The notes under the pieces are model-generated. The model did not search any database and was not told where the DNA came from. It saw only the letters and a list, made by a program, of their open reading frames with translations. Shown one piece after another: positions 16,490 to 42,036 of a stretch of DNA of 64,000 bases. The position numbers and the translations under genes are program-made. The stretch is from Nitrospirota bacterium. GTDB lineage: Bacteria; Nitrospirota; Thermodesulfovibrionia; Thermodesulfovibrionales; SM23-35. The stretch spans positions 7,469 through 71,468 of the forward strand of contig JBFLZS010000004.1 in assembly GCA_040756135.1 (NCBI GenBank). The letters run 5' to 3'. Every line of letters begins with the position of its first letter. Position 1 is the stretch's first letter.

Positions 16490-17185
16490 TTATTTCCTTC
16501 CAACAGGCATGATATAAAGTGGCTGTTCCCTGTCAGGCATCTTCATAATCTTTTTCACCTCATCATCGTAAAAGGCCCCGATAACCACTGCACCAAGATT
16601 GAGCGAGACTGCCTGCAGAAATACATTCTGGGCTGCATGACCGGCCTCAATATGCACATACCTTATGCCTCTCTCTCCATATTTCACGGTTGTTCGTTCA
16701 TAAACTGCTGAAAATACAATAACCGCAGGAGCATCTCTCACAGAAGACTGGTTGAGGGCAGCACTACACAGTTCATTCCTTTTATCGCCTTTTACAACCA
16801 TCTCGATCCCATGTTTATGCGGTCTATATCTATAAATTCCGCCTGGAAGGTCTCTTACATTGCCAGCAAAAATATACACCTCAAGAGGGTAAAGAGCCCC
16901 AGCGGAAGGAGCTGTTCTGAAACCGAATGAACCTGTAATTCCCTGTGCAGCCCAGAGGAGCTGTGAAACCTCAGCAAGTGTCAGAGGTTTGTCTTTATAA
17001 TCTCTGACACACCTTCTCTTAAGTAAGGCTTCTTCCACAGAAGTATTACTTTTATACGCAGGTTCAGGTAGTTTTATTATCTCTGACTCATCTTTTGACA
17101 TCGGTTCATCTTTCTCTTTTGCCTGCATTATTATAACAAATACTATCCCTATACATAGTACAATTATAGATAATAGGAATCTCAT
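16490..17185 (-). CDS. SagB-type nitroreductase-family dehydrogenase with N-terminal membrane anchor
   Basis: LLWAAQGITG..FRTAPSAGALYPLEVY..GIYRYRPHKHG..HIEAGHAAQNV. The start was moved to MRFLLSIIVL (ATG 17185) because upstream codons read through a repeat. Confidence 0.75.
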   Translation of the reverse strand: MRFLLSIIVLCIGIVFVIIMQAKEKDEPMSKDESEIIKLPEPAYKSNTSVEEALLKRRCVRDYKDKPLTLAEVSQLLWAAQGITGSFGFRTAPSAGALYPLEVYIFAGNVRDLPGGIYRYRPHKHGIEMVVKGDKRNELCSAALNQSSVRDAPAVIVFSAVYERTTVKYGERGIRYVHIEAGHAAQNVFLQAVSLNLGAVVIGAFYDDEVKKIMKMPDREQPLYIMPVGRK

Positions 17186-17377
17186 AATTGAATAGACATT
17201 ATTCAAAAAATCTCCCCTTTCCCCTCTTTGCCAAAGAGGGGTACACACCCCTTAATCCCCTCTTTATAGAGGGGAACTTTTCCTCCCGGAGCCTGCCCTG
17301 AGCGAAGTCGAAGGGGCAAAGGGAGGTGAGGGGGGATTTTATAAAACTAATGTAGTTATGAGAACGTTAATAATAGG
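17171..17377. mobile_element. MITE-like element family A, copy 2 (with extra internal insert)
   Basis: Termini TAATAGGAATCTCATAATTG .. GTTATGAGAACGTTAATAATAGG. The core is TCTCCCCTTTCCCCTCTTTGCCAAAGAGGGG plus a CCTGAGCGAAGTCGAAGG module. Confidence 0.8.
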
Positions 17378-19786: not shown

Positions 19787-19940
19787 CTTATTAACGGTCT
19801 CAAAATAGAATTCATATTATTCGGAAAATCTCCCCTCACCCCTCTTTGCCAAAGAGGGGTATGATTCCTCCCTTTGGCAAAGGGAGGTTAGGAGGGATTT
19901 TATAAATCAATGTGCTCACTATTATGAGACTGTTAATAAC
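19787..19940. mobile_element. MITE-like element family A, copy 3 (most complete)
   Basis: TIRs CTTATTAACGGTCTCAAAATAG .. CTATTATGAGACTGTTAATAAC. The core is CCCCTCTTTGCCAAAGAGGGG and CCTCCCTTTGGCAAAGGGAGG. Confidence 0.85.
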
Positions 19941-21042: not shown

Positions 21043-23898
21043 ATGTCTATTAGAGTTTTTTATACCTCGTTTCTGTACAGAGAGTCCACAGATATCCTTC
21101 TCAAGGCAGCAATTGACAATATAAAGGACTCTGATTATTCAAAAATCCTTTATATCGCACCCACACCGAGAAAGGTCAGGGACTGTCAGAAGAGATTTCA
21201 TGGGCTAACCCTGTTAGATAACAAACACCTAACAGGGCTAACAGGAGGCTGCTACATCCACCCTGAGATGATGACGATAAAACAATTCTCAAAAAGACTT
21301 TATTCTCTGTATGGAGAAAAAAAAGTCATCCCCCGCTCTCTGATACCGATCATAATATCGAGGCTATCAGACAGGGGGATGGGTTTTGCATCTATTATCA
21401 CTAATTTTATCAATGAGATTAAACAGCGTCATCCTGACAAAGATATCAAAACTATTGGCAAGGAACTTAAGGCTATTTTTCACGAGCTCGGTATTCCTGA
21501 AGAGGTCTCCGTCAGGGCGATGGAGGCTCTCGAGATATTCGATGCATATCAAGAGCTCATGAATAAAAATTCTGCTGTGGATGAAAACGATATTATGGTA
21601 GCCTGTCCCGGCCTGATTGAGAGGCATAATTACCGCCCCACAATCCTTATACTCGATGGATTCTATGAACTTACCGGGTCGGAAGAGGCAATCCTGAAGA
21701 AGCTTATAACAAATGCAAAAGATACCTATATTTCAATCCCTTGCGATACTACTTTTTTAGATATAACAAGCAATTATATAAATTTTCTAAAGCATTACTT
21801 TAATATTGAAGAGGTCTATTTATATCCTGAAAAAGAGGCGATAGATCTTCGACATGCTCAGGTTTATCACCCATACCCTGGAATAGAGGAAGAGGTTGAA
21901 GGTATAGCAAGAAATATAAAGAACTGCTTTATATCCGGCAAGATAAGGGATTTAGAAAAAATAACAGTTACATTCCCTGCATTATATAAATATACAGATA
22001 TGGTAGGCCGTATCTTCACAAGATACGGCCTACCATACACCACCTCGATTTCAAAACCCGCTGGAAGGACACGACCCTTTCTCGACCTGATAGCGCTGCT
22101 TGAATCCGTAGCAGATGATTATCCGAGGCTCTCATTCTCAGAATGCCTTATATCACCCTATTTCAAAAATGTGCCTTCGGCACTTAAGGAATGGATACCT
22201 CATATTTGCCTCAGATCAGGCATAATCAAGGGAAAAGATGCATGGCTCAACCTCTCAAAGGCAATCAGCAATCAGCAATCAGCAATCAGCAATCTTATGC
22301 CCGATCTTGAAAAGGAACTTCGATGGGTCTTCAAGAAACTTGCTCCGCTGGAATCTATCAGGGATGGAGGGAGCTATAGCCAATACTGCGAGGTTATCAT
22401 TAAACTTTTGAATGACCTTGATTTCTCTGATGTCAGCAGTAAGGATATAGATCTAATGGAGCAGGTACTTGAGATACTAAAGGATCTTTCCTTTATTGAT
22501 AACCTCACCATTTTCAATCCTCATATTGCGACCCTCACATTGCGACAATTTACAGATGCCCTGAAGCATATCCTGAATGCTACAGAGACAGAAACAGAAG
22601 GTACAGGTGTTCAGGTCATGGGCTTCCCCGAGATAAGGGGTATCGAGCCTGAATATCTGTACATCGGGGGACTTAAGGACGAAGACCTGCCATCAAAGCC
22701 CGATATTGACCATATACTGCCTGATAGTGTAAGGACACAATTTGGGCTTGTAAACCTGAAAAGATATTTACTCCTCCAGAGATTTACATTCCAAAGGGCG
22801 ATAGAATCAACAAAAAATCTACACCTCTCCTATCCAGTTATGGAAGGGGATAGATTCTTTCTTCCCTCCCCTTTCCTTCCCTGGAACAGAGATGTAAAAC
22901 ATCAGGTTCACGGAATCTTCTCAAAGGAGGAAGATCTCATAAGAAAAGGCAGAACAGCCCTTGCATCATTTATAACAGAGATAGGAGGTATCGAAGAAAA
23001 GTTAAAAAATAAATTTGGAGAGGACTCTTATATCAGGGTCACAGATATAGATTCTTACAGGAGCTGTCCGAGAAGGTTCTTTATAGAAAAGGTCCTCCAG
23101 CTTGAACCATTAGAGATAAAAGAGTATGAGGTCGAGGCAAGGCTTCTCGGAACTATTGCCCATGAAATTATGCAGGCCCTGATATCAAAGCCATTTGCAG
23201 ATTTAGAAGATCTCAGGATTAGAGCAGAAGCGATAATAGACAAACTCCTCTCTGATAAACCTGTAGAAGACTACTGGAAAAAGGTGATTAAGGATACATT
23301 CCTTTCAATCCTGCCAGGAATATATGAACTCGAAAGCAAGCTTGCGGATGAAGGATATTCATTCATGCATGCAGAGGTTCCTGTTAGGGGCGAGGTTATA
23401 AAGGGAATAAAACTGAAGGGGAAGGTAGACAGGATAGATAAAAAAGTTCCGAGTTCCGAGTTCCGAGTTCCGAGTTCTAAGGATAATAAACTCGTCACTG
23501 ATGTTGTTGAGCTTATTGATTACAAGACAGGAACAACACAATTCAGTGGGTCACAGGTAATGACAAAGGGAGCTACACTTCAGTTGTTCCTGTATGCAGC
23601 ACTGTTAGAGGCTCTTGGAAACAAAGTAGAACGTGTAGGCATCTATTCACTCAAGGACATAAAGCTATCATGGATTCCCGGAAAGATTGATAAGAAAAAT
23701 AATCGGACAATCGATGACTATATTGGGTCAGGTCTCCGTTTCCTCAAGGAGACTGTATCAAAAGTGAGAAAGGGAGATTTTTCTGCATCCCCATTGAACG
23801 AGCAGACATGCAGGAACTGTCCTGAAAGACCATACTGTCCGTATGTACAAAAGACGGTTGCGGGGATGCTCCCCTCTCCCCTTGCGGGAGAGGGTTAG
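21043..23898 (+). CDS. addB: AddB-type helicase-nuclease subunit (PD-(D/E)XK nuclease with Fe-S cysteines)
   Basis: 951 aa with the C-terminal nuclease motif GKVDRID..ELIDYKTG plus CPRRF..CRNCPERPYCPY, directly upstream of addA. Confidence 0.8.
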   Translation: MSIRVFYTSFLYRESTDILLKAAIDNIKDSDYSKILYIAPTPRKVRDCQKRFHGLTLLDNKHLTGLTGGCYIHPEMMTIKQFSKRLYSLYGEKKVIPRSLIPIIISRLSDRGMGFASIITNFINEIKQRHPDKDIKTIGKELKAIFHELGIPEEVSVRAMEALEIFDAYQELMNKNSAVDENDIMVACPGLIERHNYRPTILILDGFYELTGSEEAILKKLITNAKDTYISIPCDTTFLDITSNYINFLKHYFNIEEVYLYPEKEAIDLRHAQVYHPYPGIEEEVEGIARNIKNCFISGKIRDLEKITVTFPALYKYTDMVGRIFTRYGLPYTTSISKPAGRTRPFLDLIALLESVADDYPRLSFSECLISPYFKNVPSALKEWIPHICLRSGIIKGKDAWLNLSKAISNQQSAISNLMPDLEKELRWVFKKLAPLESIRDGGSYSQYCEVIIKLLNDLDFSDVSSKDIDLMEQVLEILKDLSFIDNLTIFNPHIATLTLRQFTDALKHILNATETETEGTGVQVMGFPEIRGIEPEYLYIGGLKDEDLPSKPDIDHILPDSVRTQFGLVNLKRYLLLQRFTFQRAIESTKNLHLSYPVMEGDRFFLPSPFLPWNRDVKHQVHGIFSKEEDLIRKGRTALASFITEIGGIEEKLKNKFGEDSYIRVTDIDSYRSCPRRFFIEKVLQLEPLEIKEYEVEARLLGTIAHEIMQALISKPFADLEDLRIRAEAIIDKLLSDKPVEDYWKKVIKDTFLSILPGIYELESKLADEGYSFMHAEVPVRGEVIKGIKLKGKVDRIDKKVPSSEFRVPSSKDNKLVTDVVELIDYKTGTTQFSGSQVMTKGATLQLFLYAALLEALGNKVERVGIYSLKDIKLSWIPGKIDKKNNRTIDDYIGSGLRFLKETVSKVRKGDFSASPLNEQTCRNCPERPYCPYVQKTVAGMLPSPLAGEG
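22261..22294. repeat. 7-bp tandem array GCAATCA x~5 in frame inside addB
   Basis: gcaatca gcaatca gcaatca gcaatca gcaatc, translated as AISNQQSAISN. Confidence 0.9.
23446..23478. repeat. 7-bp tandem array GTTCCGA x~4.7 in frame inside the addB nuclease domain
   Basis: gttccga x4 plus gttct, translated as VPSSEFRVPSS, between the DRID and DYK nuclease motifs. Confidence 0.9.
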
Positions 23899-23909
23899 GG
23901 TGAGGGGGA

Positions 23910-26783
23910 ATGGAAAAGTATCTTGATATAACAAAAAGCGTTATCATCTCATCCCCTGCCGGTTCGGGAAAGACAGAGAAGCTCGCAAGGCGATATATAA
24001 GTTTGCTGCTTGGCGGCTCTGAAATAGAAAAAATACTTGCAATAACCTTTACTGAGAAGGCGGCAGCAGAGATGAAGGAAAGAATTCTCAGGATACTTGA
24101 AAAGGAAAACCCTGATATGTTCCTGAAGGTCAGGGAAAAGATGCCTCTCATGCGCATATCCACAATACATTCGTTCTGTCTTAAATTACTAAAACGGTTT
24201 TCAATAGAACTCGGCCTTGACCCTTCCCTTGAAGTAATAGATGAATTCAATGCATCCATCCTGTGGTCTGAGTCTGTGTATGAAAGCCTTATGGAAGAGA
24301 AAAATAGCCCTGACCTATTCTTCAATATGATGAAAAACAGGGGCGTCAAGGGCTGGGATAATCTATCCAGAATCCTCGATGAACTACACGGAAGGAGGCC
24401 GCATCCAGAGCTTATATTAAAAGAAAGTCGCCCTGTTGAGGGAGAAGAAGAAAAGAAAATCCTTGACCTGTATTCAAGATGTCTAAAACGTTATACTGAT
24501 AAAAAACGTGAAAGACATCTAATTGATTTTGACGATCTTGAGCTACTCGCGTATGAGGCCCTTGTCAAAAACCCTGAATGGCAGAACATCCTTTATTCAT
24601 TTGATGAACATACAGACCATATACTCGTGGATGAGTTCCAGGATACAAGCTCCCTGCAATGGAAGATTATAGACAAACTCACAGAAGAATGGCGCTCGGG
24701 CCTCGGTGCAAAAAGGGATTCTGGAAAGATACCAACCATCTTTCTCGTCGGAGATGAAAAACAGTCCATCTATCTCTTCAGGGGTGCAAATGTAAGCGTC
24801 TTTCGGGATGCAAAGGAGAAATTTTCCGAATGGCTCAGTAATGAATATTACTTTGAAGAGATACGGGAAAACTACAGGAGTCTGCCTGAAATAGTAAACT
24901 TTACAAACAGTCTTTTCAAAAGATTAATGCCTCCAACCCTGTATGAAAAATGGCGTACTATGTACACACCATTTGAGACAACAAGGGTAGGCAATGGCCA
25001 TGTCGAGCTTATCCTGATGGAAGGTAGTGAAGGCATAAAAAAGAGGCGTGAACAGGAAGCCTCGGCCTTATCAAAAAGGATACAATCATTAATTAATCAA
25101 TACGAGGTATGGGATGGGGAGACAAAGAGAACCTGCACCTATGGTGATATCGCGATACTTTTAAGAAAGAGAACACACCTCGGCATATTTGAAGATGCAT
25201 TAAGAAGAGAGGGAGTACCCTTCATTGTATTAAAAGGTATTGGTTTTTACGATGAGCCAGAGGTTGCAGTACTGAGAGAACTGCTTTCTTTTATCATTGA
25301 TCCGATGGATGATTATAGCCTGTTCTGTCTCCTCAGGTCTCCTCTTTTTGGTATTGACTACAGGATATTATTCAGACTGATTGATAAAAAAGGTGACCTC
25401 ACTTTATTAGAGAAACTTCAATCTCAAATCCCCCCTTCCCCCCCTTTACTAAAGGGGGGAAGGGGGGGATTAATGGCCCGTCATTTATCTGAGGCATTTA
25501 ATCTTATCTCCGGCTGGATCAGGAGATCTGCACATACACCCCTTGCTATTCTCCTTGAGGATGCGCTTTCAGAGACAAAGGGGTGGCAGTATTACTGGGA
25601 AAAACAGAGATATGTAAACATAAAAAAATTCATAGGACTTATTGAACAATATGAGTCACAAGGTTTCTCCAGCCTTGACATAAGGGAAAAACTCATCAAG
25701 GCAAGATGGGGTGAGGAGGCGAAGGCAAACATTAATACAGAGGGTATGAATGCTGTAAAGATAATGACAATTCATGCTGCTAAAGGCCTCCAGTTTCCAG
25801 TAGTATTCCTTCCGTCACTTGATGAAGATAATCTTCCAAGAAGCAGCTCAATAGTGATAGAGGAAGATGGAGAAAGGCTCTCTTTATCATACGAAGAAGA
25901 CCCTAATAAGAGGAAAAAGATTGGACATTTCATCAGGCGAAGGGAAAAAGAACTCGAAGAGGAAAAAAGACTCTTTTATGTTGCAATCACAAGGGCAAGG
26001 GATTTCCTCTGTATGCTCGGTGCACCAAAGAAAGAAGAAAAACATAAAGGAAGGCTCGCATATGTTACTGATAACCTCGAACACCTCTCTTCTCTCAAGA
26101 TAATAACCGAATCGGATATTAATGTCTTTAAAAATCCCCCCATCCCCCCTTTACCAAAGGGGGGTAAGGGGGGATTTATTTCTTACGAATTTTCAGAACA
26201 ATTCTTGTTTGAACCAGCATACACAGAACCCATCTCATATGAACCTTCACTCAAATGGCAGGATGTCACAGAGGATTTAGACATAAGGGTAAAACACGGT
26301 GAAGACTGGGTCTTACTTGGAAAGGTTTTTCATAGTCTCTTTGAAGAGCTCGCAAAGGGGATCATAAGGTTTGACGAAATAGAGAGAAGAACATTGATAC
26401 TTTTAAGAAATGAGATACATATAAAAAAAGATATAGAAAGATTGATGGAGATTATAAGAAAAGATTTTGAAAAGCTTGATTCATCGGGGTATCTAAAAGA
26501 TGTAGTTCTCCCGCAGATAAACTCCTATGCAGAGCTTCCTTTTATCATGCAGAAAGGAAACACAGTCTTCAGGGGCAGGATAGACAGGATTGTTATAAAA
26601 GATAATATCGCCAATATTTATGATTATAAGACCTTTCCTGTAAAAGAAAGAGAATTATCAGAACTTATTGATGAATACAGGTTCCAGATGGACATTTACA
26701 CGGCTGCTGCAGAAAAATTACTTTCCCTCAAGACAAAAGGGTACATCTTGTTTACACATTTGCCTTTACTGGTAGAGGTTTAG
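23910..26783 (+). CDS. addA: AddA-type UvrD-family helicase with C-terminal PD-(D/E)XK nuclease
   Basis: 957 aa with Walker A SPAGSGKTEKL, DEFQDTS, helicase motifs (IMTIHAAKGLQFP, YVAITRAR) and C-terminal GRIDRIV..IYDYKT. Confidence 0.85.
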   Translation: MEKYLDITKSVIISSPAGSGKTEKLARRYISLLLGGSEIEKILAITFTEKAAAEMKERILRILEKENPDMFLKVREKMPLMRISTIHSFCLKLLKRFSIELGLDPSLEVIDEFNASILWSESVYESLMEEKNSPDLFFNMMKNRGVKGWDNLSRILDELHGRRPHPELILKESRPVEGEEEKKILDLYSRCLKRYTDKKRERHLIDFDDLELLAYEALVKNPEWQNILYSFDEHTDHILVDEFQDTSSLQWKIIDKLTEEWRSGLGAKRDSGKIPTIFLVGDEKQSIYLFRGANVSVFRDAKEKFSEWLSNEYYFEEIRENYRSLPEIVNFTNSLFKRLMPPTLYEKWRTMYTPFETTRVGNGHVELILMEGSEGIKKRREQEASALSKRIQSLINQYEVWDGETKRTCTYGDIAILLRKRTHLGIFEDALRREGVPFIVLKGIGFYDEPEVAVLRELLSFIIDPMDDYSLFCLLRSPLFGIDYRILFRLIDKKGDLTLLEKLQSQIPPSPPLLKGGRGGLMARHLSEAFNLISGWIRRSAHTPLAILLEDALSETKGWQYYWEKQRYVNIKKFIGLIEQYESQGFSSLDIREKLIKARWGEEAKANINTEGMNAVKIMTIHAAKGLQFPVVFLPSLDEDNLPRSSSIVIEEDGERLSLSYEEDPNKRKKIGHFIRRREKELEEEKRLFYVAITRARDFLCMLGAPKKEEKHKGRLAYVTDNLEHLSSLKIITESDINVFKNPPIPPLPKGGKGGFISYEFSEQFLFEPAYTEPISYEPSLKWQDVTEDLDIRVKHGEDWVLLGKVFHSLFEELAKGIIRFDEIERRTLILLRNEIHIKKDIERLMEIIRKDFEKLDSSGYLKDVVLPQINSYAELPFIMQKGNTVFRGRIDRIVIKDNIANIYDYKTFPVKERELSELIDEYRFQMDIYTAAAEKLLSLKTKGYILFTHLPLLVEV
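25427..25471. repeat. GC-rich palindromic element (family P) in frame in addA
   Basis: AATCCCCCCTTCCCCCCCTTTACTAAAGGGGGGAAGGGGGGGATT, translated as IPPSPPLLKGGRGGL. Confidence 0.9.
26133..26176. repeat. GC-rich palindromic element (family P) in frame in addA
   Basis: AATCCCCCCATCCCCCCTTTACCAAAGGGGGGTAAGGGGGGATT, translated as NPPIPPLPKGGKGGF. Confidence 0.9.
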
Positions 26784-26893
26784 AGACAAAGAGGGGCATT
26801 ACACACCCCTACACCCCTCTCAAGAGGGGATTATTCCTCCCTTTGGAAAAGGGAGGTTAGGAGGGATTTTATAAGAATTACGTACACATTATT
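26784..26893. mobile_element. MITE-like element family A, copy 4 (left end truncated at addA stop)
   Basis: ..CAAAGAGGGGCATTACACACCCCTACACCCCTCTCAAGAGGGGATTATTCCTCCCTTTGGAAAAGGGAGGTTAGGAGGGATTTTATAAG... The right end runs into the ATG of the next gene. Confidence 0.75.
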
Positions 26894-29084: not shown

Positions 29085-29171
29085 CCTTTCTTAGTTTATC
29101 CCCATCTCTGCTATAATTAGTGCATGAAACGTTCATGTCTTAAAAAGACGCAAAGGATAATGAAAATTAGT

Positions 29172-29217
29172 AATCCCCCTTATACCCCCCTTTAGAAAAG
29201 GGGGGCAAGGGGGGATT
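29172..29217. repeat. family P palindrome fused to a conserved leader (twin of 35640..35684)
   Basis: AATCCCCCTTATACCCCCCTTTAGAAAAGGGGGGCAAGGGGGGATT, followed by TGAGGTATTTTCAG and a start codon. Confidence 0.9.
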
Positions 29218-29231
29218 TGAGGTATTTTCAG

Positions 29232-29717
29232 GTGAAACATATTGACAGAATATGCGAAAAATACAATATAGCCCTATGTTATCTCTTTGGCTCTCAACAG
29301 GACCAAGGGAAGGCCATTCTGGAAGGTAAGCAGGTTGAAGTGGTAGACACAGAATCAGATATTGATTTTGCGGTTCTGTTTAAAACGCCTCCTGAAAATT
29401 CCCTTGAAACCTATGCCTTGTTGAGCCTTGACCTTCAAGAACTCGTAACACCTTTTAAAGCTGACCTCCTTTTTCTACATGAGGTTGACCATTTGATACA
29501 GCTTGAGGCAATTAAAGGGATAAACATATATTCCTTTGACAATGTATTTAGAGATGAATATGAAGAAAAGGTGATGATGTTCGCATCGGATGAATTAGAG
29601 ATATTTAAAATGAATGAGAAAGATCTGTTAGAGGCGATAGACAATGGTTATTTCGAATTTGAATACAAAGCTGATAGATATAGACAGCGGTCTACGATTC
29701 GTAGAGGAGAGGGTTAG
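29232..29717 (+). CDS. MNT-type nucleotidyltransferase-domain protein (no adjacent HEPN partner)
   Basis: LCYLFGSQ...ESDIDFAVLF (the GS..DxD NTase motif). GTG 29232 was chosen by analogy with glgA, and the C-terminal GEG* is supplied by a repeat. Confidence 0.65.
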   Translation: MKHIDRICEKYNIALCYLFGSQQDQGKAILEGKQVEVVDTESDIDFAVLFKTPPENSLETYALLSLDLQELVTPFKADLLFLHEVDHLIQLEAIKGINIYSFDNVFRDEYEEKVMMFASDELEIFKMNEKDLLEAIDNGYFEFEYKADRYRQRSTIRRGEG

Positions 29718-29743
29718 GGTGAGGGGGGATTGGTAAGAGGAAA

Positions 29744-31987: not shown

Positions 31988-32155
31988 GGTTCTTTCGTAA
32001 AATAGTTGAAAATCATAAATACTGGATTCCCGCCTGCGCGGGAATGACAAACTGCTTACAATTAAAAACGTCATTCCCCGACCCCCGATTACAACCTTCG
32101 AGGGCGGGCTTGATCGGGGAATCCAGAAGCCTTTTCAACTAAAATACGAAAGACA
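31988..32155. mobile_element. 168-bp MITE-like element, copy 2 (family C)
   Basis: Near-identical to 14767..14935 with only a handful of substitutions, in the same orientation. Confidence 0.8.
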
Positions 32156-32231
32156 ATAAGATAATAACATAATATATAAAGTCAATAAAGCGAAAGAGCA
32201 TTGTAGACTGCCTGTGTTATTATAGCTAACG

Positions 32232-33545
32232 ATGAAGCGGGTTGTTGTAACAGGCATCGGTGCAGTTAGTTCCCTTGGAAATTCATTTTATGAGTCCTGG
32301 AGGGCTGCAAAAACAGGATTATCAGGCATACTGCCAATAACAAGATTTGATGTCTCTGATATGAGATGGAAGGTCGCAGGTGAGTTAAAGGGATTTGATG
32401 CAGGGAAATATCTTTCTCAAAAAGAGATGATCCGAGTTGACCCGTTTGTGCATTATGCTGTTGCTGCAGCAATGATGGCAGTAGAGGATGCAGGACTGAT
32501 AGATCAGAAGTCAGAAGTCAGAAGTCAGAAGTCAAATCCCCCTCCACCCCCCTTTACTAAAGGGGGGGTAGGGGGGATTACTAACTCCGAACTCTTAAAC
32601 TCTGCTGGGGTTATTATCGGTTCAAGCCGTGGAGGGATCACAACAATAGAAAAAGAGCTGCAAAAATTATACGCATCACGTATCACGCATCATGCATCAC
32701 GCATTTCTGCCTATCTCATGCCATCAACAACGATCAGCATGGCTTCGTCTTATGTTGCCCAAAAACTTGGTATAAAGGGCCACTGTCTCGGTATATCCAA
32801 TTCATGTGCATCAGGCACAAGTGCGATAGGTGAAGCATATAGGCTGATCAGGTCAGGCTATCAAGGTATCGTGCTATGTGGTGGAGCCGAAGCCCCTTTA
32901 TGCAGGATATGTATTGAAGGATATGGTTCATCAGGTGCTTTATCCAAGGTCAACGATCCCTCTGCGAGCAGGCCGTTTGACAGGACGAGGGATGGATTTG
33001 TCCTTTCAGAAGGCGCGTGTATTTTTGTCCTGGAAGATTATGAGAGTGCATTGCGAAGAGGTATAAGGACGTACGGAGAGATTGTAGGCTATGGGAATAC
33101 AACAGATGCATTTCATCAAACCATACCGGCCTCTGAAGGTGAGGCAAGGGCAATAAAGATGGCAATAGATGAGGCAGGATTGAAGCCTGAAGATATTGAT
33201 TTTATCAATGCACATGGTACATCGACACCCCTTGGTGATAAAACCGAGACAGAGGCGATAAAGCTGTCATTTGGCAAGAGAGCCTATTATATCCCTGTAA
33301 GTTCTACTAAATCCATGACTGGTCATATGCTTGCTGCATCCGGAGCCCTTGAGGCAGCTTTTACCTTAATGAGTATGAATGAAGGGGTTATTCCACCAAC
33401 AATCAATCTGAAAGAGAAAGACCCTGAATGTGATCTTAATTATGTAACCGAAACAAAAAGGGCTGATATTAAATCTGCTATTTCTAATTCATTCGGCTTT
33501 GGTGGGGTGAATGCGGTGCTGGTTTTTAAAAGGATTGGCCTCTGA
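32232..33545 (+). CDS. fabF: 3-oxoacyl-ACP synthase II (FabF) carrying two repeat-derived insertions
   Basis: KAS fold with active-site context NSCASGTSAIG, HGTSTPLGD and GHMLAASG. The extra segments are at 32505..32579 and 32671..32705. Confidence 0.9.
   Translation: MKRVVVTGIGAVSSLGNSFYESWRAAKTGLSGILPITRFDVSDMRWKVAGELKGFDAGKYLSQKEMIRVDPFVHYAVAAAMMAVEDAGLIDQKSEVRSQKSNPPPPPFTKGGVGGITNSELLNSAGVIIGSSRGGITTIEKELQKLYASRITHHASRISAYLMPSTTISMASSYVAQKLGIKGHCLGISNSCASGTSAIGEAYRLIRSGYQGIVLCGGAEAPLCRICIEGYGSSGALSKVNDPSASRPFDRTRDGFVLSEGACIFVLEDYESALRRGIRTYGEIVGYGNTTDAFHQTIPASEGEARAIKMAIDEAGLKPEDIDFINAHGTSTPLGDKTETEAIKLSFGKRAYYIPVSSTKSMTGHMLAASGALEAAFTLMSMNEGVIPPTINLKEKDPECDLNYVTETKRADIKSAISNSFGFGGVNAVLVFKRIGL
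32505..32579. repeat. composite insert: 7-bp array (CAGAAGT x4) plus family P palindrome, in frame in fabF
   Basis: cagaagt x4 then AATCCCCCTCCACCCCCCTTTACTAAAGGGGGGGTAGGGGGGATT, translated as KSEVRSQKSNPPPPPFTKGGVGGI. By my count the span is 75 bp. Confidence 0.9.
32671..32705. repeat. 7-bp tandem array (ACGCATC-like x5) in frame in fabF
   Basis: acgcatc acgtatc acgcatc atgcatc acgcatt, translated as ASRITHHASRIS. Confidence 0.85.
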
Positions 33546-34558: not shown

Positions 34559-34618
34559 GCATAGAGCGAAGAGGATAGAGTTTCATACCTTTAGCTCTTT
34601 GCTCCATGCTCTTTGCTA
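34559..34618. repeat. inverted pair of short 7-bp-periodic arrays upstream of galT-like gene
   Basis: catagag cgaagag gatagag ... ctctttg ctccatg ctctttg ctat. The CTCTTTG unit recurs inside kdsB. Confidence 0.5.
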
Positions 34619-34633
34619 TAAAGTGGAGGAAAT

Positions 34634-35629
34634 ATGTCAGAACTTAGAAAGGACCCTATATCCGGCCGCTGGGTTATTATCTCTGTAGAAAGAGGTAAAA
34701 GGCCAACAGATTTTGTCTCTCCTTCTCAGAGAAAAAAAGGTGGTTTCTGTCCCTTCTGCCCCGGTAACGAATATACTACACCAGCAGAAATAATGGCTTT
34801 TAGACCTTCTGATACAAAGCCGAATTCACCGGGATGGACGTTAAGGGTCATGTCTAATAAGTTTCCTGCCCTCCAGATATATGGAGACCTGAATAAGACA
34901 GGAGAGGGCATTTTTGACAAGATGAACGGGATAGGTGCTCATGAGGTTATTGTGGAGACACCAGATCACATGCTAACCCTCTCGACTATGCCGTTAAAGT
35001 CAGTTGAAGATGCACTTTGGGCATATTACCTACGACTCTCTGACCTAAAGAAAGATCAGCGTTTTAAGTATGTGCTGATATTTAAGAATGAAGGAGATGC
35101 TGCGGGTGCATCCCTTGAACATTCCCATACACAGTTGATCGCACTGCCGATTATCCCTAAACTGGTGAAAGAAGAGACCGATGCCGCAAAACGTTATTAT
35201 GATTTAAAGGAAAGATGTATTTTCTGTGATGTTATTAATCAGGAACTCGAAAGCAGGAAAAGGGTAATATACGAAAACGCAAGGTATGTTGCACTCGCAC
35301 CATTTGCGCCGAGTGCGCCTTTTGAGACGTGGATATTGCCTAAGAGGCATGAGTCGAGGTTCAGCCCTCCGGATAAGAGTTTCTCGGGTCTTGCAGAAAT
35401 ACTCCAGGTTATCCTGAAACAGATGGACAGGATACTCGATGTGCCTCCTTATAATTTCGTGTTACACACGTCTGCTTTTACCGATGAAATAAATGATTAC
35501 TACCACTGGCATATAGAGCTTGTGCCCAAGCTCACAAAGATTGCTGGCTTTGAGTGGGGTTCGGGTTTCTATATTAATCCTACACCTCCTGAGGAGTCAG
35601 CAAGGTTTATGAGGGAGGCAAAGATATAA
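34634..35629 (+). CDS. galactose-1-phosphate uridylyltransferase-family (HIT branch) nucleotidyltransferase
   Basis: CPFCPGNE zinc motif and the active site SLEHSHTQLIA (HxHxQ). It is adjacent to glgA. Confidence 0.85.
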   Translation: MSELRKDPISGRWVIISVERGKRPTDFVSPSQRKKGGFCPFCPGNEYTTPAEIMAFRPSDTKPNSPGWTLRVMSNKFPALQIYGDLNKTGEGIFDKMNGIGAHEVIVETPDHMLTLSTMPLKSVEDALWAYYLRLSDLKKDQRFKYVLIFKNEGDAAGASLEHSHTQLIALPIIPKLVKEETDAAKRYYDLKERCIFCDVINQELESRKRVIYENARYVALAPFAPSAPFETWILPKRHESRFSPPDKSFSGLAEILQVILKQMDRILDVPPYNFVLHTSAFTDEINDYYHWHIELVPKLTKIAGFEWGSGFYINPTPPEESARFMREAKI

Positions 35630-35639
35630 TGAAATTTGT

Positions 35640-35684
35640 AATCCCCCTATACCCCCCTTTAGAAAAGGGGGGCGAGGGGGGATT
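35640..35684. repeat. family P palindrome fused to a conserved leader (twin of 29172..29217)
   Basis: AATCCCCCTATACCCCCCTTTAGAAAAGGGGGGCGAGGGGGGATT, followed by TGAGGTATTTTCAG-ATG of glgA. Confidence 0.9.
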
Positions 35685-35698
35685 TGAGGTATTTTCAG

Positions 35699-37156
35699 AT
35701 GAAGATACTCATTGCAACTCCTGAAGCCGTACCTTATGTTAAGACCGGCGGCCTTGCAGATGTTGCGGGGTCCTTATTTAAGGAATACAGAAGGATGAAG
35801 AAAGAGGCATACATTATCCTGCCTTTTTATAAAAAGATAAAGGATGGCCAGTCTTCGATAGAGGATACAGGTGTCAGGATAAATGTTCCGGTAGGAGACA
35901 CGGTCATAGAGGGAAGGATTTTCAGCAATCAATATTCAACCTATTTTATAGGGTGTGATAAATTTTTTGACAGACAAGAACTTTATGGTACACCGGCGGG
36001 AGATTATAGTGATAATATATCGAGATTTGTATTTTTCTCAAGGGGGATAATCGAGGCATGTAAGGCTTTGAACTTTAAACCAGATGTAATCCACTGTAAT
36101 GACTGGCAGACAGGACTTGTGCCGCTTTATCTGAAGACAATATATAGAGGTGATAAATTTTTTAAAAATGTGGCTACTATACTTACAATACATAATCTTG
36201 GATACCAGGGTCTTTTCCCATCATCGGACTTACCCATCACAAATCTTGGGTGGGAGCTTTTCAACCCCGAGGGCATTGAATTCTACGGAAAGATAAATTT
36301 TCTTAAAGCAGGCATTATATCCGCAGATATCCTGAATACAGTTAGTAACACTTATGCAAAAGAAATCCTCAATAAAGAGTTTGGTTTTGGCCTTGACGGT
36401 GTGCTGCGAATGAGAGAGTCGGTACTTTACGGTGTTATAAACGGTATAGATTATGAAGAGTGGGACCCTTCGAGAGATCTGTTTATACCTGCTAATTATA
36501 GCTATAATGACATCTCGGGGAGGGCATTCTGTAAAAAGGAGCTTATGAGATTATTGTTTGGACCGTCAGACATTCTTGATGCCGAACGCATCCCGCTCAT
36601 AGGCATTGTCGGAAGGCTTTCTGCACAGAAGGGATTGGACCTTGTTCTACAGTCCATCGATGAACTCCTGTCCTTTGGTGTAAAGCTTGTTATCCTGGGT
36701 AAAGGTGATGAAGTGTACCACAACAGTTTTTCAGAGGTCGCAAAAAAATATAAAGGCAAGGTATCTGTTATCATTGGATTCGAAGAGCCACTTGCCCACA
36801 AAATTTACGCAGGTTCAGACTTTTTTCTGATGCCATCGAGGTACGAGCCATGCGGACTTGGCCAGCTTATAGCCCTGCGATATGGATGCATTCCTATAGC
36901 AAGAAGGACAGGTGGACCTTCTGATACTATACATGATTATGAGCCCCTGAAATCGAAGGGTACGGGTTTCCTTTTTTCTGATTACACACCCTCTGCAATG
37001 CAGGATGCCGTAAAAAGGGCCCTTTGCGTTTATACAGATGAGGATAAAAAGCACAAGATGATAATAGATGGTATGAATATGGATTTCTCATGGAAGAAAT
37101 CAGCAGAAAGATACATTGAACTCTATAATGCTGCTATAGAAAAAAGAAAGGCTTAA
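35699..37156 (+). CDS. glgA: glycogen synthase GlgA
   Basis: MKILIATPEAVPYVKTGGLADV N-terminus and a GT5 fold (PSRYEPCGL). ATG 35699 is preferred over the TTG at 35684. Confidence 0.92.
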   Translation: MKILIATPEAVPYVKTGGLADVAGSLFKEYRRMKKEAYIILPFYKKIKDGQSSIEDTGVRINVPVGDTVIEGRIFSNQYSTYFIGCDKFFDRQELYGTPAGDYSDNISRFVFFSRGIIEACKALNFKPDVIHCNDWQTGLVPLYLKTIYRGDKFFKNVATILTIHNLGYQGLFPSSDLPITNLGWELFNPEGIEFYGKINFLKAGIISADILNTVSNTYAKEILNKEFGFGLDGVLRMRESVLYGVINGIDYEEWDPSRDLFIPANYSYNDISGRAFCKKELMRLLFGPSDILDAERIPLIGIVGRLSAQKGLDLVLQSIDELLSFGVKLVILGKGDEVYHNSFSEVAKKYKGKVSVIIGFEEPLAHKIYAGSDFFLMPSRYEPCGLGQLIALRYGCIPIARRTGGPSDTIHDYEPLKSKGTGFLFSDYTPSAMQDAVKRALCVYTDEDKKHKMIIDGMNMDFSWKKSAERYIELYNAAIEKRKA

Positions 37157-37169
37157 TAAGGTATTTCTG

Positions 37170-39614
37170 ATGGATACAGCACACAAACAAAAACTTGCTG
37201 AAATAATTTTTGAAAACATCCAGGACGGTATTATAATGCTTGATAGAAGCTACAGGATACTCGCTGTTAATAAATCTGCAGAGAAATGGATAGAAAACCC
37301 CTCCTCTGACCTTATAGGTAAAGACTGCGCTGAATTATTTCATGATCTTACAGGGATATGTCCACATTGTGCAGCCAAGGTCACGTTCGAAACAGGAGAG
37401 GTCAATATTGTGACGCAGAAAGGGAATCTTAAAAATACTGCATATTACGCTGAACTTTCAGCATATCCTGTAAAGAATGAGACAGGGGAGGTTATTGAAT
37501 GTGTTGTATTTATTCAGGATGCAACTGAAAGGATGCTCTGTCATGATGAGATTCTTGGTCTTTATAACGAGGTTACCCAGACAAAGGAGTATATCGAGGG
37601 AATTATAGAAAACTCGGCAGATGCAATAGTCACCTCTGATCTCGATGGGTTTATTACCTCATGGAATGAAGGGGCAGAGAGAATATATGGATTCACAAAG
37701 GAAGAGGCATTGGGGAAATTTTTACCTTTTCTTCCTGAATTTCTCATTGACCCTGAATGGGAAAACACTCAAAGGATAAAGAATGGAGAGGTACTGAAGG
37801 ATATGGAGACCTTCAGGAAGAGGAAGGATGGTACGATCATAACAGTCAGTCTTACGCTTTCTCCGATTAAAGATGTGGCAGGTCGGGTTATTGGTATCAG
37901 CGGTATATCCAGGGATATATCAGAGAAGAAACGTATTGAGAGAGAGCTGATCATGAGGAACCAGGAACTTTCGAGACTCTTATTTATCAGTTCAGCTATG
38001 AGGGGGACACTTGAACTTGACAGGTTGTTAAGAATGGTTCTTGCTGCAGTTACCATGGGCGATGGGCTCGGCTTTAATCGGGCAATCCTTTTCCTGGTTG
38101 ATGAAAAAAGGAATATATTGAAGGGGGCTGTGGGGGTAGGGCCTGCGAGTTCTGAGGAGGCGTGGCGTATATGGGAGAGACTTTCCATAGAGAAGAAGAC
38201 GCTGGCTGACATAATGCATGATATAGAAATTGGGCCGTTGAGAAAGGATTCTTTTTTTGACAGACTCAGCCGCGGTATGGAGATACCTTTGTCAGAGGAA
38301 ACAATTCTTACAAAGACCGTGAAAGAGAAGAAACCTTTTAATATTCATGATGTAAAAGAAGAACCACTCTCAGATACACTCCTAATACAGCAGTTGGGCA
38401 CACATGCTTATTCAGTTTCGCCTCTGATATCGAGGGATAAGGTAATAGGAGTCCTCTGGGTTGACAACCATTTCAACAGGAGGCCTATAGCTGAGGGAGA
38501 TATGAGGTTTCTCAGCGGTTTTTCAAACCATATTGCAACAGCCATAGAGAGCGCAAGGCTCTTTGAGCAGGTAGCCCTTGCAGAGCAGGAACTTGAGAAT
38601 ATATTTGAGTCAATATCTGATATGGTCTACTTCATTACGAAGGATTATGTGTTAAAGAACATCAATAAGGCTGTCAGCAAGAGGCTGGGTAAACCTGTAG
38701 AGGAAATCACAGGGAAGAAATGCTATGAGGTAATTCATGGTATGAACGGACCGCGGGCAGAGTGCCCGCATCATAAAACTATTGAGACAGGGAAGGCATT
38801 TGTAGAGGAGGTTGAAGACCATCATCTTGGCGGTACGTTCATATTTTCAAGCTCTCCGATATTTGATACGGCAGGGGAATTTATAGGTACGGTAAATGTA
38901 GTTAGTGATATAACAGAGCTGAAAAACCTGCGTGAGAGGCTTATAATGGCAGAGAGGATGGCGGCACTCGGAGAAGTTGCAGCAAAAGTAGCTCATGAGA
39001 TAAGGAATCCTCTTGTCTCTCTTGGGGGGTTTGCAAAAAGACTTGAGAAGAAGTTAGACGGCAACCTGAAAGAGTATGCAGATATAATTGTAAAGGAAGT
39101 CGAAAGACTTGAGGGCATACTTAATGAGATTCTCAGTTTTGTTAAGGAAACAAGGGTTGTAAAGGAAACAGTCGATTCTGCCAGACTTATTGAAGATGTT
39201 ATCTCTCTTACAAAATCCGATCTTGAAGAGCGGGATGTAGTTCTCGTCAGAGAAATTGGCGAGCGTATCGAGATGTATATAGATCCTAACAGGATGAAAG
39301 AAGCCCTGCTTAATATACTGAAAAATGCTGTTCAGGCTGTGGGCAGTAACGGTAAAATATTAATAAAGACATATATTAAAGATAATAATGCTGTGGTTGA
39401 GATAAAAGATACAGGCGCAGGAATAGCCGAGGAGGACCTGCCGTTTATATTTGACCCTTTCTTTACTACAAAAAGGACAGGTACCGGACTTGGCCTTGCT
39501 ATAACACACAGGATTATAGAAGAGCACTCGGGAAATATTGAGGTAGAGAGCAAGCCCGGCGCGGGAAGCATATTCAGGGTATTTATACCATTGAAAATGA
39601 GAAGTGAAAAATAA
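37170..39614 (+). CDS. multi-sensor histidine kinase (PAS-PAS-GAF-PAS-HisKA-HATPase)
   Basis: 814 aa with H-box AHEIRNPL, N-box NILKNAVQA, and G boxes DTGAGI and GTGLGLAI. Confidence 0.85.
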   Translation: MDTAHKQKLAEIIFENIQDGIIMLDRSYRILAVNKSAEKWIENPSSDLIGKDCAELFHDLTGICPHCAAKVTFETGEVNIVTQKGNLKNTAYYAELSAYPVKNETGEVIECVVFIQDATERMLCHDEILGLYNEVTQTKEYIEGIIENSADAIVTSDLDGFITSWNEGAERIYGFTKEEALGKFLPFLPEFLIDPEWENTQRIKNGEVLKDMETFRKRKDGTIITVSLTLSPIKDVAGRVIGISGISRDISEKKRIERELIMRNQELSRLLFISSAMRGTLELDRLLRMVLAAVTMGDGLGFNRAILFLVDEKRNILKGAVGVGPASSEEAWRIWERLSIEKKTLADIMHDIEIGPLRKDSFFDRLSRGMEIPLSEETILTKTVKEKKPFNIHDVKEEPLSDTLLIQQLGTHAYSVSPLISRDKVIGVLWVDNHFNRRPIAEGDMRFLSGFSNHIATAIESARLFEQVALAEQELENIFESISDMVYFITKDYVLKNINKAVSKRLGKPVEEITGKKCYEVIHGMNGPRAECPHHKTIETGKAFVEEVEDHHLGGTFIFSSSPIFDTAGEFIGTVNVVSDITELKNLRERLIMAERMAALGEVAAKVAHEIRNPLVSLGGFAKRLEKKLDGNLKEYADIIVKEVERLEGILNEILSFVKETRVVKETVDSARLIEDVISLTKSDLEERDVVLVREIGERIEMYIDPNRMKEALLNILKNAVQAVGSNGKILIKTYIKDNNAVVEIKDTGAGIAEEDLPFIFDPFFTTKRTGTGLGLAITHRIIEEHSGNIEVESKPGAGSIFRVFIPLKMRSEK

Positions 39615-39669
39615 GAAGTGAGAAGTGAAATCTTAACTTCCTATTTCCTATTTTCCACTTCCTACTTTT
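39597..39669. repeat. inverted 7-bp-periodic arrays forming an imperfect hairpin between kinase and regulator genes (possible attenuator or terminator)
   Basis: gagaagt gaaaaat aagaagt gagaagt gaaa / acttcct atttcct attttcc acttcct actttt. The left arm encodes the last residues and the stop of the kinase. Confidence 0.5.
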
Positions 39670-40035: not shown

Positions 40036-42036
40036 ATGTCGCGTGAAATCTATCTTGAAAGCACACCTTTACACGAGGCGATAGCGAAGTGGCTTAAAAA
40101 GCTTGATTCTGAAGGGGTTATGAGGCCACTCTCAGGGGAAACAATCAAGGTTGTAAATTCCCTTGGAAGAGTTACCGCTGAGGCAATCATCGCAAATATC
40201 TCTTCTCCGTTTTACCATTCGTCAGCGATGGATGGCTATGCCGTGAGATTCGCAGATACTTTTGGTGCCTCAGAGAGGACTCCTAAAAGGTTAAAGATAG
40301 GAGAACATACAGTTTATGTTGATACAGGTGATCCTATGCCTGACGGGTTTAACGCAGTAATAATGATAGAGGATGTAAATATAATAAAAAGTCAGAAGTC
40401 AGAAGTCAGAAGTCAGACAAATCCCCCCTTTCCCCCCTTTACTAAAGGGGGGTTAGGAGAAATTGATGAATACATCGAGATAATTTCGCCTGCAACACCC
40501 TGGCAGCATGTGAGGGTAATTGGTGAAGACATTGTGGCTACAGAGCTGATACTACCTGAGAATCATAAGATAAGACCTGTTGACATAGGTGCAATGCTAA
40601 CAGGCGGGCATATAGAGGTGATTGTCAGGAAAAGACCGCGTGTTGTTGTTATCCCGACAGGTACGGAACTTGTTGAGGCAGGAGGGGATTTAAAGAAAGG
40701 TGATATTATCGAATATAACTCAAGAATCTTCAGCGGTCTTGTCTCTGAATGGGGAGGTGAGTCTATCAGATTCAGGATTATACCCGATGTGATCGAAGAA
40801 CTGAAAAGGGCGATACTGGATGCCCTCGACATGGGGGACCTGGTTGTTGTTAATGCTGGTGCATCTGCTGGCTCGGAAGACTTCACTGCAAAGGCTATAA
40901 ATGAGCTCGGAGAAGTGATACTCCATGGCGTTAGCATAAAGCCGGGTAAGCCCGTCATCCTTGGATGGATAAAAGGTAAACCCATTCTTGGCATACCCGG
41001 CTATCCTGTATCTGCTTATATAACATTCAATCTATTTGCAAGGCCACTTATTTATAAATGGCAGGGTCTCGATATAGAAGGGCCTGAGATATTGAGGGCG
41101 AAGATTTCGAGGCAGGTCGCATCTACCTTAGGACATGAGGAATTCCTTAGAGTAAAGGTGGGGAAGGTCGGTGATAATTTTATCGCAACCCCTGTTAGCC
41201 GTGGAGCAGGTATACTTATGTCTCTTGTACGTGCTGATGGTTTTGTCCGAATACCTGCTATGTCCGAAGGTATTGGTGCAGGCACAGAGGTAGATGTGGA
41301 GCTAATGAGGTCTAAAGGCGATATTGAAAATACGATTGTCTGTATCGGAAGCCATGACAATGCCCTCGATCTGCTTGCTAATATACTAAAGAAGAGGCAT
41401 CCTAAGTTTTCTCTCTCATCAGCCCATGTGGGTTCAATGGGAGGTCTGATGTCATTAAAGAGAGGAGAGGCATATATGGCAGGAACACATCTGTTAGATG
41501 AGAAGACAGGGGAGTACAATGTATCATTTATAAAAAGACTTCTTCCTGATAAAAAGATCCTCCTCATAAATCTTGTCTATAGAGAGCAGGGTCTTGTTGT
41601 GCTAAAAGGTAATCCCAAAAACATAAATGGATTTGAAGACTTAACAAGAAGTGATGTCGTGTTTGTCAACAGACAGGCCGGTGCAGGAACAAGGCTTCTT
41701 ACAGATAAGTGTTTAAGAGAACTTGGGATAAAACCTGAAAATGTAAAAGGTTATGAAAGGGAGGAATATACACACATGGGCGTTGCATCTGCGGTGCTTA
41801 CAGGGGTTGCAGACACTGGCCTTGCAATACTTGCATCTGCGAGGGCATTAAATCTCGATTTTATCCCTGTTGCAAAGGAAAGATATGACCTTGCAATACC
41901 TCGTGAATTCTTTGAGACGGAGATGCTTCAGAATCTCATAAAGATTATAAGCGAGGACACAGAATTCAAGGATATGGTGATGGCGCTTGGGGGATACGAT
42001 ATATCAGATATGGGAAAGGTGATGTATGAAGGTTAA
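40036..42036 (+). CDS. moeA: MoeA molybdopterin molybdenumtransferase fused to a periplasmic-binding-protein-like domain
   Basis: 666 aa with MoeA domains (SAMDGYAV, GGVSxG-like GASAGSEDF, PGKP, PGYPVS) plus a C-terminal PBP-like module. Confidence 0.85.
   Translation: MSREIYLESTPLHEAIAKWLKKLDSEGVMRPLSGETIKVVNSLGRVTAEAIIANISSPFYHSSAMDGYAVRFADTFGASERTPKRLKIGEHTVYVDTGDPMPDGFNAVIMIEDVNIIKSQKSEVRSQTNPPFPPFTKGGLGEIDEYIEIISPATPWQHVRVIGEDIVATELILPENHKIRPVDIGAMLTGGHIEVIVRKRPRVVVIPTGTELVEAGGDLKKGDIIEYNSRIFSGLVSEWGGESIRFRIIPDVIEELKRAILDALDMGDLVVVNAGASAGSEDFTAKAINELGEVILHGVSIKPGKPVILGWIKGKPILGIPGYPVSAYITFNLFARPLIYKWQGLDIEGPEILRAKISRQVASTLGHEEFLRVKVGKVGDNFIATPVSRGAGILMSLVRADGFVRIPAMSEGIGAGTEVDVELMRSKGDIENTIVCIGSHDNALDLLANILKKRHPKFSLSSAHVGSMGGLMSLKRGEAYMAGTHLLDEKTGEYNVSFIKRLLPDKKILLINLVYREQGLVVLKGNPKNINGFEDLTRSDVVFVNRQAGAGTRLLTDKCLRELGIKPENVKGYEREEYTHMGVASAVLTGVADTGLAILASARALNLDFIPVAKERYDLAIPREFFETEMLQNLIKIISEDTEFKDMVMALGGYDISDMGKVMYEG
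40391..40464. repeat. composite insert: 7-bp array (GTCAGAA x4) plus family P palindrome, in frame in moeA
   Basis: gtcagaa x3 gtcagac then AATCCCCCCTTTCCCCCCTTTACTAAAGGGGGGTTAGGAGAAATT, translated as SQKSEVRSQTNPPFPPFTKGGLGEI. Confidence 0.9.

Follow-up and report, generated by a model that had tools for sequence, protein, structure and literature searches.

Insertion of a small hairpin-forming repeat at the start codons of two unrelated genes in a Nitrospirota genome and its recurrence at gene starts in metagenomes

Results

We analyzed a 64-kb stretch of DNA (hereafter the window) from contig JBFLZS010000004.1 of a Nitrospirota bacterium, in which two near-identical, hairpin-forming segments each end on the start codon of a gene, the two genes being unrelated. 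One gene encodes an MNT nucleotidyltransferase of the Polbeta type (29232 to 29717, forward strand), and the other is glgA (35699 to 37156, forward strand). The first-pass annotation of this DNA had placed the ends of the segments exactly at the GTG at 29232 and the ATG at 35699, and both codons coincide with the starts annotated by NCBI: the annotated MNT (161 amino acids, P0121) and GlgA (485 amino acids, P0001) each match the window protein with 100% identity and coverage. The N-terminus of GlgA, described earlier as canonical, agrees with the MK(I/x)L of its homologues, and that of MNT aligns with the MKxID of its own. Furthermore, the Pfam domains of both proteins start at residues 2 to 3 (Polbeta at residues 3 to 103 of MNT; Glyco_transf_5 at residues 2 to 237 of GlgA, corresponding to profile positions 1 to 238).

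The near identity of 29172 to 29234 and 35640 to 35701, from which that annotation started, was reproduced, with one indel and two substitutions over 62 to 63 nucleotides (nt). The segments are nevertheless longer than first given: the similarity reaches about 87 nt (approximately 29151 to 29236 against 35617 to 35703), and the repeat unit itself is bigger, measuring 108 nt at MNT (29124/29131 to 29231/29238, forward strand) and 70 nt at glgA (35629/35634 to 35698/35703, forward strand). The two copies are about 95% identical.

Each copy has a three-tiered hairpin architecture. In the MNT copy, the core nested palindrome (29172 to 29217, forward strand) reads AATCCCCC-N-CCCCCCTTT-AGA-AAAGGGGGG-N-GGGGGATT, where the outer arm AATCCCCC (29172 to 29179) pairs with GGGGGATT (29210 to 29217) around an inner hairpin with an AGA loop (29185 to 29205). 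A third stem joins TGAAAAT (29161 to 29167) to ATTTTCA (29224 to 29230); across both copies, it is formed by TGAAAT or TGAAAAT against ATTTTCA. To the left of the core lies a long-form left module (29131 to 29171, forward strand), composed of GTTCATG, a small hairpin GTCTT-AAA-AAGAC (29137 to 29149), CAAAGGATA, and ATGAAAAT (29160 to 29167). To the right lies a leader, or right module (29218 to 29231, forward strand), with the order T-GAGG-T-ATTTTCA-G. Its GAGG (29219 to 29222), which resembles a Shine-Dalgarno (SD) site, falls in the internal loop separating the second and third stems and is followed by a 9-nt spacer and the GTG at 29232. The glgA copy is a short form (35634 to 35698, forward strand) with its core at 35640 to 35684 (arms at 35640 to 35647 and 35677 to 35684, inner hairpin at 35652 to 35672), GAGG at 35686 to 35689, and ATTTTCA at 35691 to 35697, directly before the ATG at 35699.

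The stable hairpin that had been proposed just 5' of the leader was borne out by the predicted RNA folds, which reached -40.2 kcal/mol (z = -3.8) for 29126 to 29250 at the MNT copy and -45.1 kcal/mol (z = -4.75) for the glgA copy. In the predicted MNT fold, the GAGG is located within an internal loop and the GTG just beyond the third stem. When up to 3 mismatches were allowed, the inner palindrome was found at 8 sites in the window (15 strand matches, because most sites match on both strands), compared with 0.00 expected from shuffled sequences, which excludes chance.

Syntenic relatives without the cassette revealed the boundaries of both copies. At the MNT locus, L247 to L250 (labels of this form denote contigs of relatives or metagenome loci) retain the gene order UPF0175-DUF3368-MNT with an intergenic gap of 39 nt, versus 147 nt in the window. 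Their empty site, ...CTGCTATAATTAGTAC|ATGAAACAGATTGAC, holds one ATGAAAC, and the filled site of the window reads ...TGCTATAATTAGTGC-ATGAAAC-(101 nt)-GTGAAAC-ATATTGAC, which corresponds to an insertion of 108 nt. At the glgA locus, the galT stop overlaps the glgA start (GGTATGAAG / GCAAAGGTATGAAGATACTG) in L123 to L126 and L254 to L256 (85% GlgA identity), and an unrelated AT-rich spacer of 103 nt separates the two genes in L120 to L122 (88% GlgA identity). The filled site in the window is GCAAAGATATA-ATGAA-(65 nt)-ATGAA-GATACTC, an insertion of 70 nt. Since the cassette is missing in these syntenic relatives, both the MNT and the glgA copies are insertions, and the GAGG-N9 leader belongs to the inserted DNA at both loci. 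The suggestion that the repeat carries an SD site and its spacer is thus supported, as the GAGG and the following 9 nt lie within the insertion and the GAGG leader (GAGGTATTTTCAG) is absent from the empty MNT sites. The sequence GCAAAG..ATAATGAA to the left of the glgA copy was considered as a possible part of the element and rejected; element-free relatives carry the same sequence, so GCAAAG..ATA at glgA represents the native 3' end of galT.

The sequence (A/G)TGAA(AC) stands as a direct repeat on both sides of each insertion. At MNT, the left repeat ATGAAAC (29124 to 29130, forward strand) contains the native MNT start codon left behind, 108 nt from the right repeat GTGAAAC (29232 to 29238, forward strand). 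At glgA, the left repeat ATGAA (35629 to 35633, forward strand) overlaps the galT stop TAA (35627 to 35629) and lies 70 nt from the right repeat ATGAA (35699 to 35703, forward strand). The present start codon of each gene is located inside its right repeat. Long forms of the element nearly always have A-TGAAAC as their left junction, and their right junction consists of CAG-G-TGAA and then sequence specific to the gene. Short forms (the glgA copy of the window, L140, L187, and L195) have CAG-ATGAA on the right. The core common to both kinds of junction is therefore TGAA(A). The A that begins the native start remains at the left, and in long forms the element supplies the G with which the new start begins, which would explain the many GTG starts.

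The occurrence of the cassette beyond the window was evaluated by scanning metagenome contigs for core plus tail (AAGGGGGG-N2-4-GGGGGATTT-N3-12-ATTTTCA), which yielded more than 120 loci. Among the matches listed, one clear subfamily stood out, with the consensus (A/G)TGAAAC-ATTCATG-small hairpin-ACAAAGGAT(A/G)-ATGAAAAT..TAATCCCCCC-N-CCCCCCTTTAGAAAAGGGGGG-N-GGGGGGATTTGA(A)(A)GG(G)TATTTTCAG-(G/A)TGAA(A). When 11 long-form copies from different loci were aligned (alignment A3), the conserved stretch ran exactly from ATGAAAC to RTGAA, with unrelated sequence on both flanks. The small hairpin of the left module covaries among these copies, with changes on both sides in 4 of 5 pairs, and the TGAAAAT/ATTTTCA and AATCCCCC/GGGGGATT pairings are all retained. 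Nearly all copies of the subfamily have a purine-rich GAGG, AAGG, or GGGG, variable in its exact sequence, 8 to 10 nt before the RTG.

A census of copies against start codons, as the first-pass annotation had proposed, revealed a strong positional bias, where a lack of bias would have refuted the proposal. The terminal RTG opens an open reading frame (ORF) of at least 160 codons in 14 of the 23 informative unique copies listed, and only 11.7% of all RTGAR sites in the same loci do so (binomial P = 2.5e-8). A cruder test for a co-oriented downstream gene, in which all tail variants were pooled, was uninformative (39/103 versus 28/92). Several downstream ORFs have Pfam domains beginning at residues 3 to 6 (NirB-like reductase, MnmA, PanC, FAD oxidoreductase, and amidohydrolase). 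In others, which encode an SBP_bac_5 protein, TamB, and a T2SS-K protein, a signal peptide or a membrane anchor forms the N-terminus. The genes downstream of the cassette share no common functional theme. The cassette thus recurs at many unrelated true N-termini. The initial picture of a portable cassette that supplies initiation regions is retained as regards the insertion-borne leader and the many unrelated genes, and modified as regards the start codon, which is not simply donated: it is rebuilt from the (A/G)TGAA direct repeat of the native start.

The native signals of MNT lie to the left of its insertion. An extended -10-like box, TGCTATAAT (29109 to 29117, forward strand), is placed 6 nt before the native MNT ATG, and three unrelated contexts (L248, L251, and L253) show TATAAT-N6-ATG ahead of MNT orthologues, with TATACT replacing TATAAT in a fourth locus group (L247/L249/L250). 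A simple -35/-10 promoter scan of the window did not call the box upstream of MNT. From the recurrence of TATAAT-N6-ATG before the orthologues, we infer that the native MNT mRNA is probably leaderless. A box of the form ...CT(C/T)TGCTATAA(T) also recurs a few nt before start codons in the window (1515 to 1541, 29090 to 29116, and 34595 to 34621), a hint that this organism has extended -10 promoters whose leaders are very short or missing.

The ATG codons stranded at the left junctions open short reading frames. That of MNT (29124) begins an upstream ORF of 23 codons whose stop, TAG at 29193 to 29195, falls in the hairpin loop, and that of glgA (35629) begins an out-of-frame ORF of 31 codons ending at a TGA (35722 to 35724), 24 nt into glgA. 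A conserved peptide was considered and rejected, as these ORFs range from 4 to 35 codons across copies with variable frames and stops; a coding role is consequently unlikely. The stranded ORF could possibly serve as a relay, either by melting of the hairpin or by termination followed by re-initiation.

The start-codon subfamily belongs to a much wider palindrome family. A genome scan for the inner palindrome (CCCCCCTTT-NNN-AAAGGGGGG) found more than 119 loci, and the hosts listed include Nitrospirota, Desulfobacterota, Beta- and Gammaproteobacteria, Methylomirabilota, Aminicenantes, Dehalococcoidia, Kapaibacteria, and others. Among the matches listed, genome G+C ranges from 30 to 73%. Isolates with the core are also represented (Chromatium okenii, Thiospirillum jenense, Lysobacter, a complete Luteimonas genome, and Pelotalea). 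At least one of the arms AAATCCCCCC and GGGGGGATTT is found in 133 of the 141 matches listed: 19 have the two together and 114 a single one, and copies with a single arm are often arranged as inverted pairs that enclose a spacer. Another abundant tail subfamily, GAAAATNCATTTCC-AAATCCCCCC...GGGGGGATTTATGATTTTCAT(G/A)(G/T)TTCG, has conserved downstream sequence and no association with start codons; its metagenome loci are L130, L134, L144, L149, L155, L161, L164, L166, L204, L209, L215, L229, L231, L240, and L241.

Within the window, the family has at least 13 copies, and variant cores (CCTCCC/GGGAGG and CCCCTC/GAGGGG) retain pairing. Intergenic compound clusters combine two or three hairpins with variant cores inside a single AAATC...GATTT outer stem (16330 to 16451, 17180 to 17354, 19789 to 19923, 26790 to 26887, and 63721 to 63855), and the variant-core changes in these clusters are compensatory at the family level.

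Five other copies are in frame within intact protein-coding genes, to which they add about 15 to 30 residues rich in P, G, and K (e.g., NPPPPPFTKGGVGG). The fabF copy (32489 to 32598, forward strand) consists of (CAGAAGT)n heptamers followed by a nested palindrome and encodes FabF residues 90 to 118, which have no counterpart in solved FabF structures. The same loop is filled by heptamer repeats only in L254 (1430 to 1480), by a different palindrome, C7/G7, in L255 (1400 to 1470), and by both heptamers and a palindrome in the window; since L254 and L255 encode identical GlgA, the fabF site is hypervariable at the strain level. The moeA copy (40384 to 40460, forward strand) is found in a MoeA of 666 amino acids, versus 651 in relatives. 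Two copies lie in the gene for an AddA-like helicase-nuclease (25426 to 25470 and 26131 to 26177, forward strand), flanked on both sides by the Pfam domains UvrD, UvrD_C, and PDDEXK. The fifth, a compound copy in a LysM/NlpC-P60 gene (42878 to 42990, reverse strand), occupies the linker between LysM domains and has the right module ATTTTCAGGTGA.

Two further kinds of repeat occur in the window. Tandem repeats of a heptanucleotide, either (CAGAAGT)n or (AGCAATC)n, are often found directly next to palindromes (32489 to 32534, 40384 to 40415, 39597 to 39628, and 22259 to 22295) and are partly complementary to the sequence across the palindrome; we take them to resemble the STRR repeats of cyanobacteria. 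A 140-nt repeat, 98% identical between its copies (14767 to 14906 and 31988 to 32127, plus 14909 to 14948 and 32129 to 32168), precedes both the ORF at 15067 and fabF. The other palindromes that it carries (TTCCCGCCTGCGCGGGAA; GATTCCCCGA...TCGGGGAATC) mark it as a separate repeat family, for which Rfam returned no credible match.

Discussion

The two cassettes are probably (at a rough probability of 0.75) independent insertions of one start-codon subfamily of a small, non-coding, hairpin-forming mobile repeat, similar to MITEs (miniature inverted-repeat transposable elements) or REP (repetitive extragenic palindromic) sequences, that replaces native translation initiation. The element consists of an optional left module (ATTCATG, the small covarying hairpin, and ACAAAGGATA-ATGAAAAT), the nested C6/G6 palindrome, and a right module with the SD-like GAGG followed by TATTTTCAG. 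Integration or retention would take place at (A)TGAA(A), the commonest Met-Lys gene start, and this sequence would then be found on both sides of the element. The native start codon and native signals would be stranded at the left junction, opening a short ORF into the hairpin, while a new RTGAA start would arise at the right junction, 9 nt past the GAGG of the element and with the frame of the gene kept. Initiation would in this manner become SD-led just 3' of a very stable 5' hairpin, in place of a putatively leaderless mode at MNT and of stop/start coupling to galT at glgA. As the element would bring its own ribosome-binding site and a rebuilt start, the genes probably stay translatable despite the insertion. 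The agent acting at TGAA(A) could be a recombinase or transposase, or else microhomology-templated copying, and the hairpin or the upstream ORF may influence mRNA stability or coupling, for example through stabilization of the 5' end or modulation of access.

It is important to consider the observations that weigh against this explanation. About 40% of the subfamily copies listed are away from long ORF starts, and some of these sit upstream of a native SD; moreover, the census favors conserved copies, among which selected ones may be overrepresented. The use of the donated SD and RTG by ribosomes is a prediction, and the predicted glgA fold partly pairs the SD and start with the first glgA codons. 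The junction repeat fits a target duplication, a shared crossover core, or microhomology alike. When 3,583 ORFs from about 240 loci were clustered all against all, no transposase or recombinase was found near the copies, and the families that emerged were generic only (the recurring neighbors were response regulators and kinases, ABC ATPases, TPR, and Fe-S proteins). Likewise, phmmer searches of about 250 short loci with IS200 TnpA and RAYT queries gave no match, and arm-to-arm pairs 0.3 to 5 kb apart in the same loci defined no consistent gene-enclosing unit. Finally, the MNT/HepT toxin-antitoxin pair looks degenerate (29643 to 29737): the HepT (HEPN) toxin partner of MNT is down to its first 12 codons, and the MNT C-terminus is lengthened by 11 residues through a G-rich repeat (GGAGAGGGTTAGGGTGAGGGGG) with a second copy at 23887 to 23918. 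Given the loss of HepT and the altered C-terminus, selection on MNT expression may be weak, and the tolerated insertion at MNT may reflect this relaxed selection.

Some of these points would be accommodated if the element spread by homology- or microhomology-templated repair or template switching instead of transposition, with the palindrome stalling replication and the ATGAA(A) ends and SD-like flanks annealing at similar gene starts, so that the association with start codons would follow from sequence similarity and not from a targeting enzyme. We regard this as a tentative alternative. At the left junction of the glgA copy, the native galT 3' end (GCAAAGATATAATGAA) resembles the left module of the element (ACAAAGGATAATGAAAAT) at about 13 of 16 positions, a hint of homology-assisted insertion rather than classical transposition. 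The junction repeats are also unequal in length (5 nt at glgA, 6 to 7 nt at MNT, and about 3 to 6 nt in other long forms), the modules adjoin in varied arrangements (in L145, L182, and L207, a right-module-like sequence with the purine-rich motif and ATTTTCA stands directly before a left module), and the negative transposase searches point the same way. However, the boundaries of the long forms are sharp and the same across loci, and a high-copy core in many phyla would be easier to explain with dedicated, horizontally spread machinery.

Such machinery is central to a comparably speculative extension of the mobile-repeat explanation, namely start-codon homing, in which horizontally spread machinery would recognize the cross-phylum AAATCCCCCC/C6-TTT core and the present subfamily would target ATGAA(A), swap the initiation mode, and use the stranded start as a relay. 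If true, start-codon homing would amount to a natural, self-compensating rewiring of translation initiation and not to random insertion filtered by selection.

A role of the hairpins in transcription or mRNA stability, as terminator, attenuator, RNase barrier, or insulator, with the GAGG incidental, seems unlikely. The hairpins are indeed very stable, and other family copies occur between convergent or tandem genes (e.g., 16330 to 16451, 19789 to 19923, and 26790 to 26887). However, the stem is followed by TGAGGTATTTTC with no U-tract, a terminator scan called neither copy, and many copies are in frame within coding regions. In addition, the conserved spacing from purine-rich motif to true start at many loci would be unexpected for an incidental motif.

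A conserved cis-regulatory RNA motif of the 5' untranslated region (UTR), such as the protein- or ligand-bound leader of a regulon, is very improbable. Sequence and structure are conserved before many genes and one helix covaries, but the element is polymorphic in presence and absence between orthologous loci, its downstream genes lack a functional theme, and the same core is found within ORFs and between convergent genes. Furthermore, Rfam searches at gathering and permissive thresholds assigned it to no family; only two tRNAs in the window passed the gathering threshold, and nothing credible was returned for the focal region. A one-off event between these two loci, through local segmental duplication or gene conversion and with no general portability, which the near identity of the copies and a similarity extending about 20 nt leftward of the palindrome might evoke, is the least credible of all, as the insertion lengths (108 versus 70 nt) and left boundaries differ and the census contradicts it with near-identical cassettes before many genes in other samples.

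Among known systems, Neisseria REP2 (and the similar Borrelia plasmid IR sequences) is functionally the closest, comprising multicopy intergenic repeats with internal stem-loops. The resemblance is functional only and lies in the supply of an initiation region, here GAGG-N9-RTG at true N-termini. REP2 is restricted to Neisseria, lacks terminal inverted repeats, and has its own promoter; a promoter scan inside the present element called no promoter-like site, and the promoter-like box of MNT is in the native flank. Unlike REP2, the element has a nested palindrome, direct repeats at its junctions, a start rebuilt from the target, and a cross-phylum core.

MITEs such as Correia, ERIC, Nezha, and Chunjie are likewise small, non-coding, hairpin-forming, multicopy elements with inverted arms, junction repeats, and filled/empty polymorphism. 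The present copies (70 and 108 nt) are below the limit of about 500 bp, are multicopy with no conserved ORF, and have terminal or subterminal inverted repeats, with direct repeats plus filled and empty alleles at both loci. They differ from MITEs in that no parent insertion sequence or transposase was found in about 250 short loci, in the start-codon-specific junction repeat, and in the cross-phylum core, which is unusual. Chunjie reportedly sits in an operon without disrupting it.

With regard to in-frame insertion, the closest parallel is given by the Rickettsia palindromic elements (RPEs), palindromic repeats that unrelated protein-coding genes tolerate in frame (PMC10969869). The family described here behaves in the same way in fabF, moeA, addA-like, and LysM/NlpC genes. 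RPEs measure about 100 to 150 bp, encode a conserved peptide, and are confined to Rickettsia, whereas the present core is about 45 nt long, contains C6/G6 runs, occurs in many phyla, and includes one subfamily specialized for start codons. Outside this lineage, the family resembles tagged REPs and REPIN doublets, which RAYT transposases mobilize, in that its unit is mostly a hairpin with one conserved flanking arm (AAATCCCCCC) and such units are often paired in inverted orientation across a spacer. The two REP superfamilies are defined by a GTAG or CGTC tag at one end of the palindrome (PMC3733652). This tag is absent here, where the arm is AAATCCCCCC/GGGGGGATTT, and many copies are intragenic rather than extragenic. 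A literature search for the literal element sequences found nothing relevant in the collection searched, and keywords gave general reviews of repeats and MITEs. Two traits of the element are unusual, the start-codon rebuilding at ATGAA targets and the cross-phylum core.

These results describe a mobile repeat that sits on the start codon, where a gene is most sensitive, and would nevertheless leave the gene functional. Initiation would shift from leaderless or coupled to SD-led, often with a change from ATG to GTG, which matters for how 5' UTRs and operon coupling evolve. The family is also relevant to the annotation of gene starts in metagenome-assembled genomes, as it makes in-frame insertions and false N-terminal extensions as well. 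The start-codon subfamily may represent a natural portable part for translation initiation. Finally, the maintenance of the core at 30 to 73% G+C across many phyla points to widespread, apparently undescribed recognition machinery.

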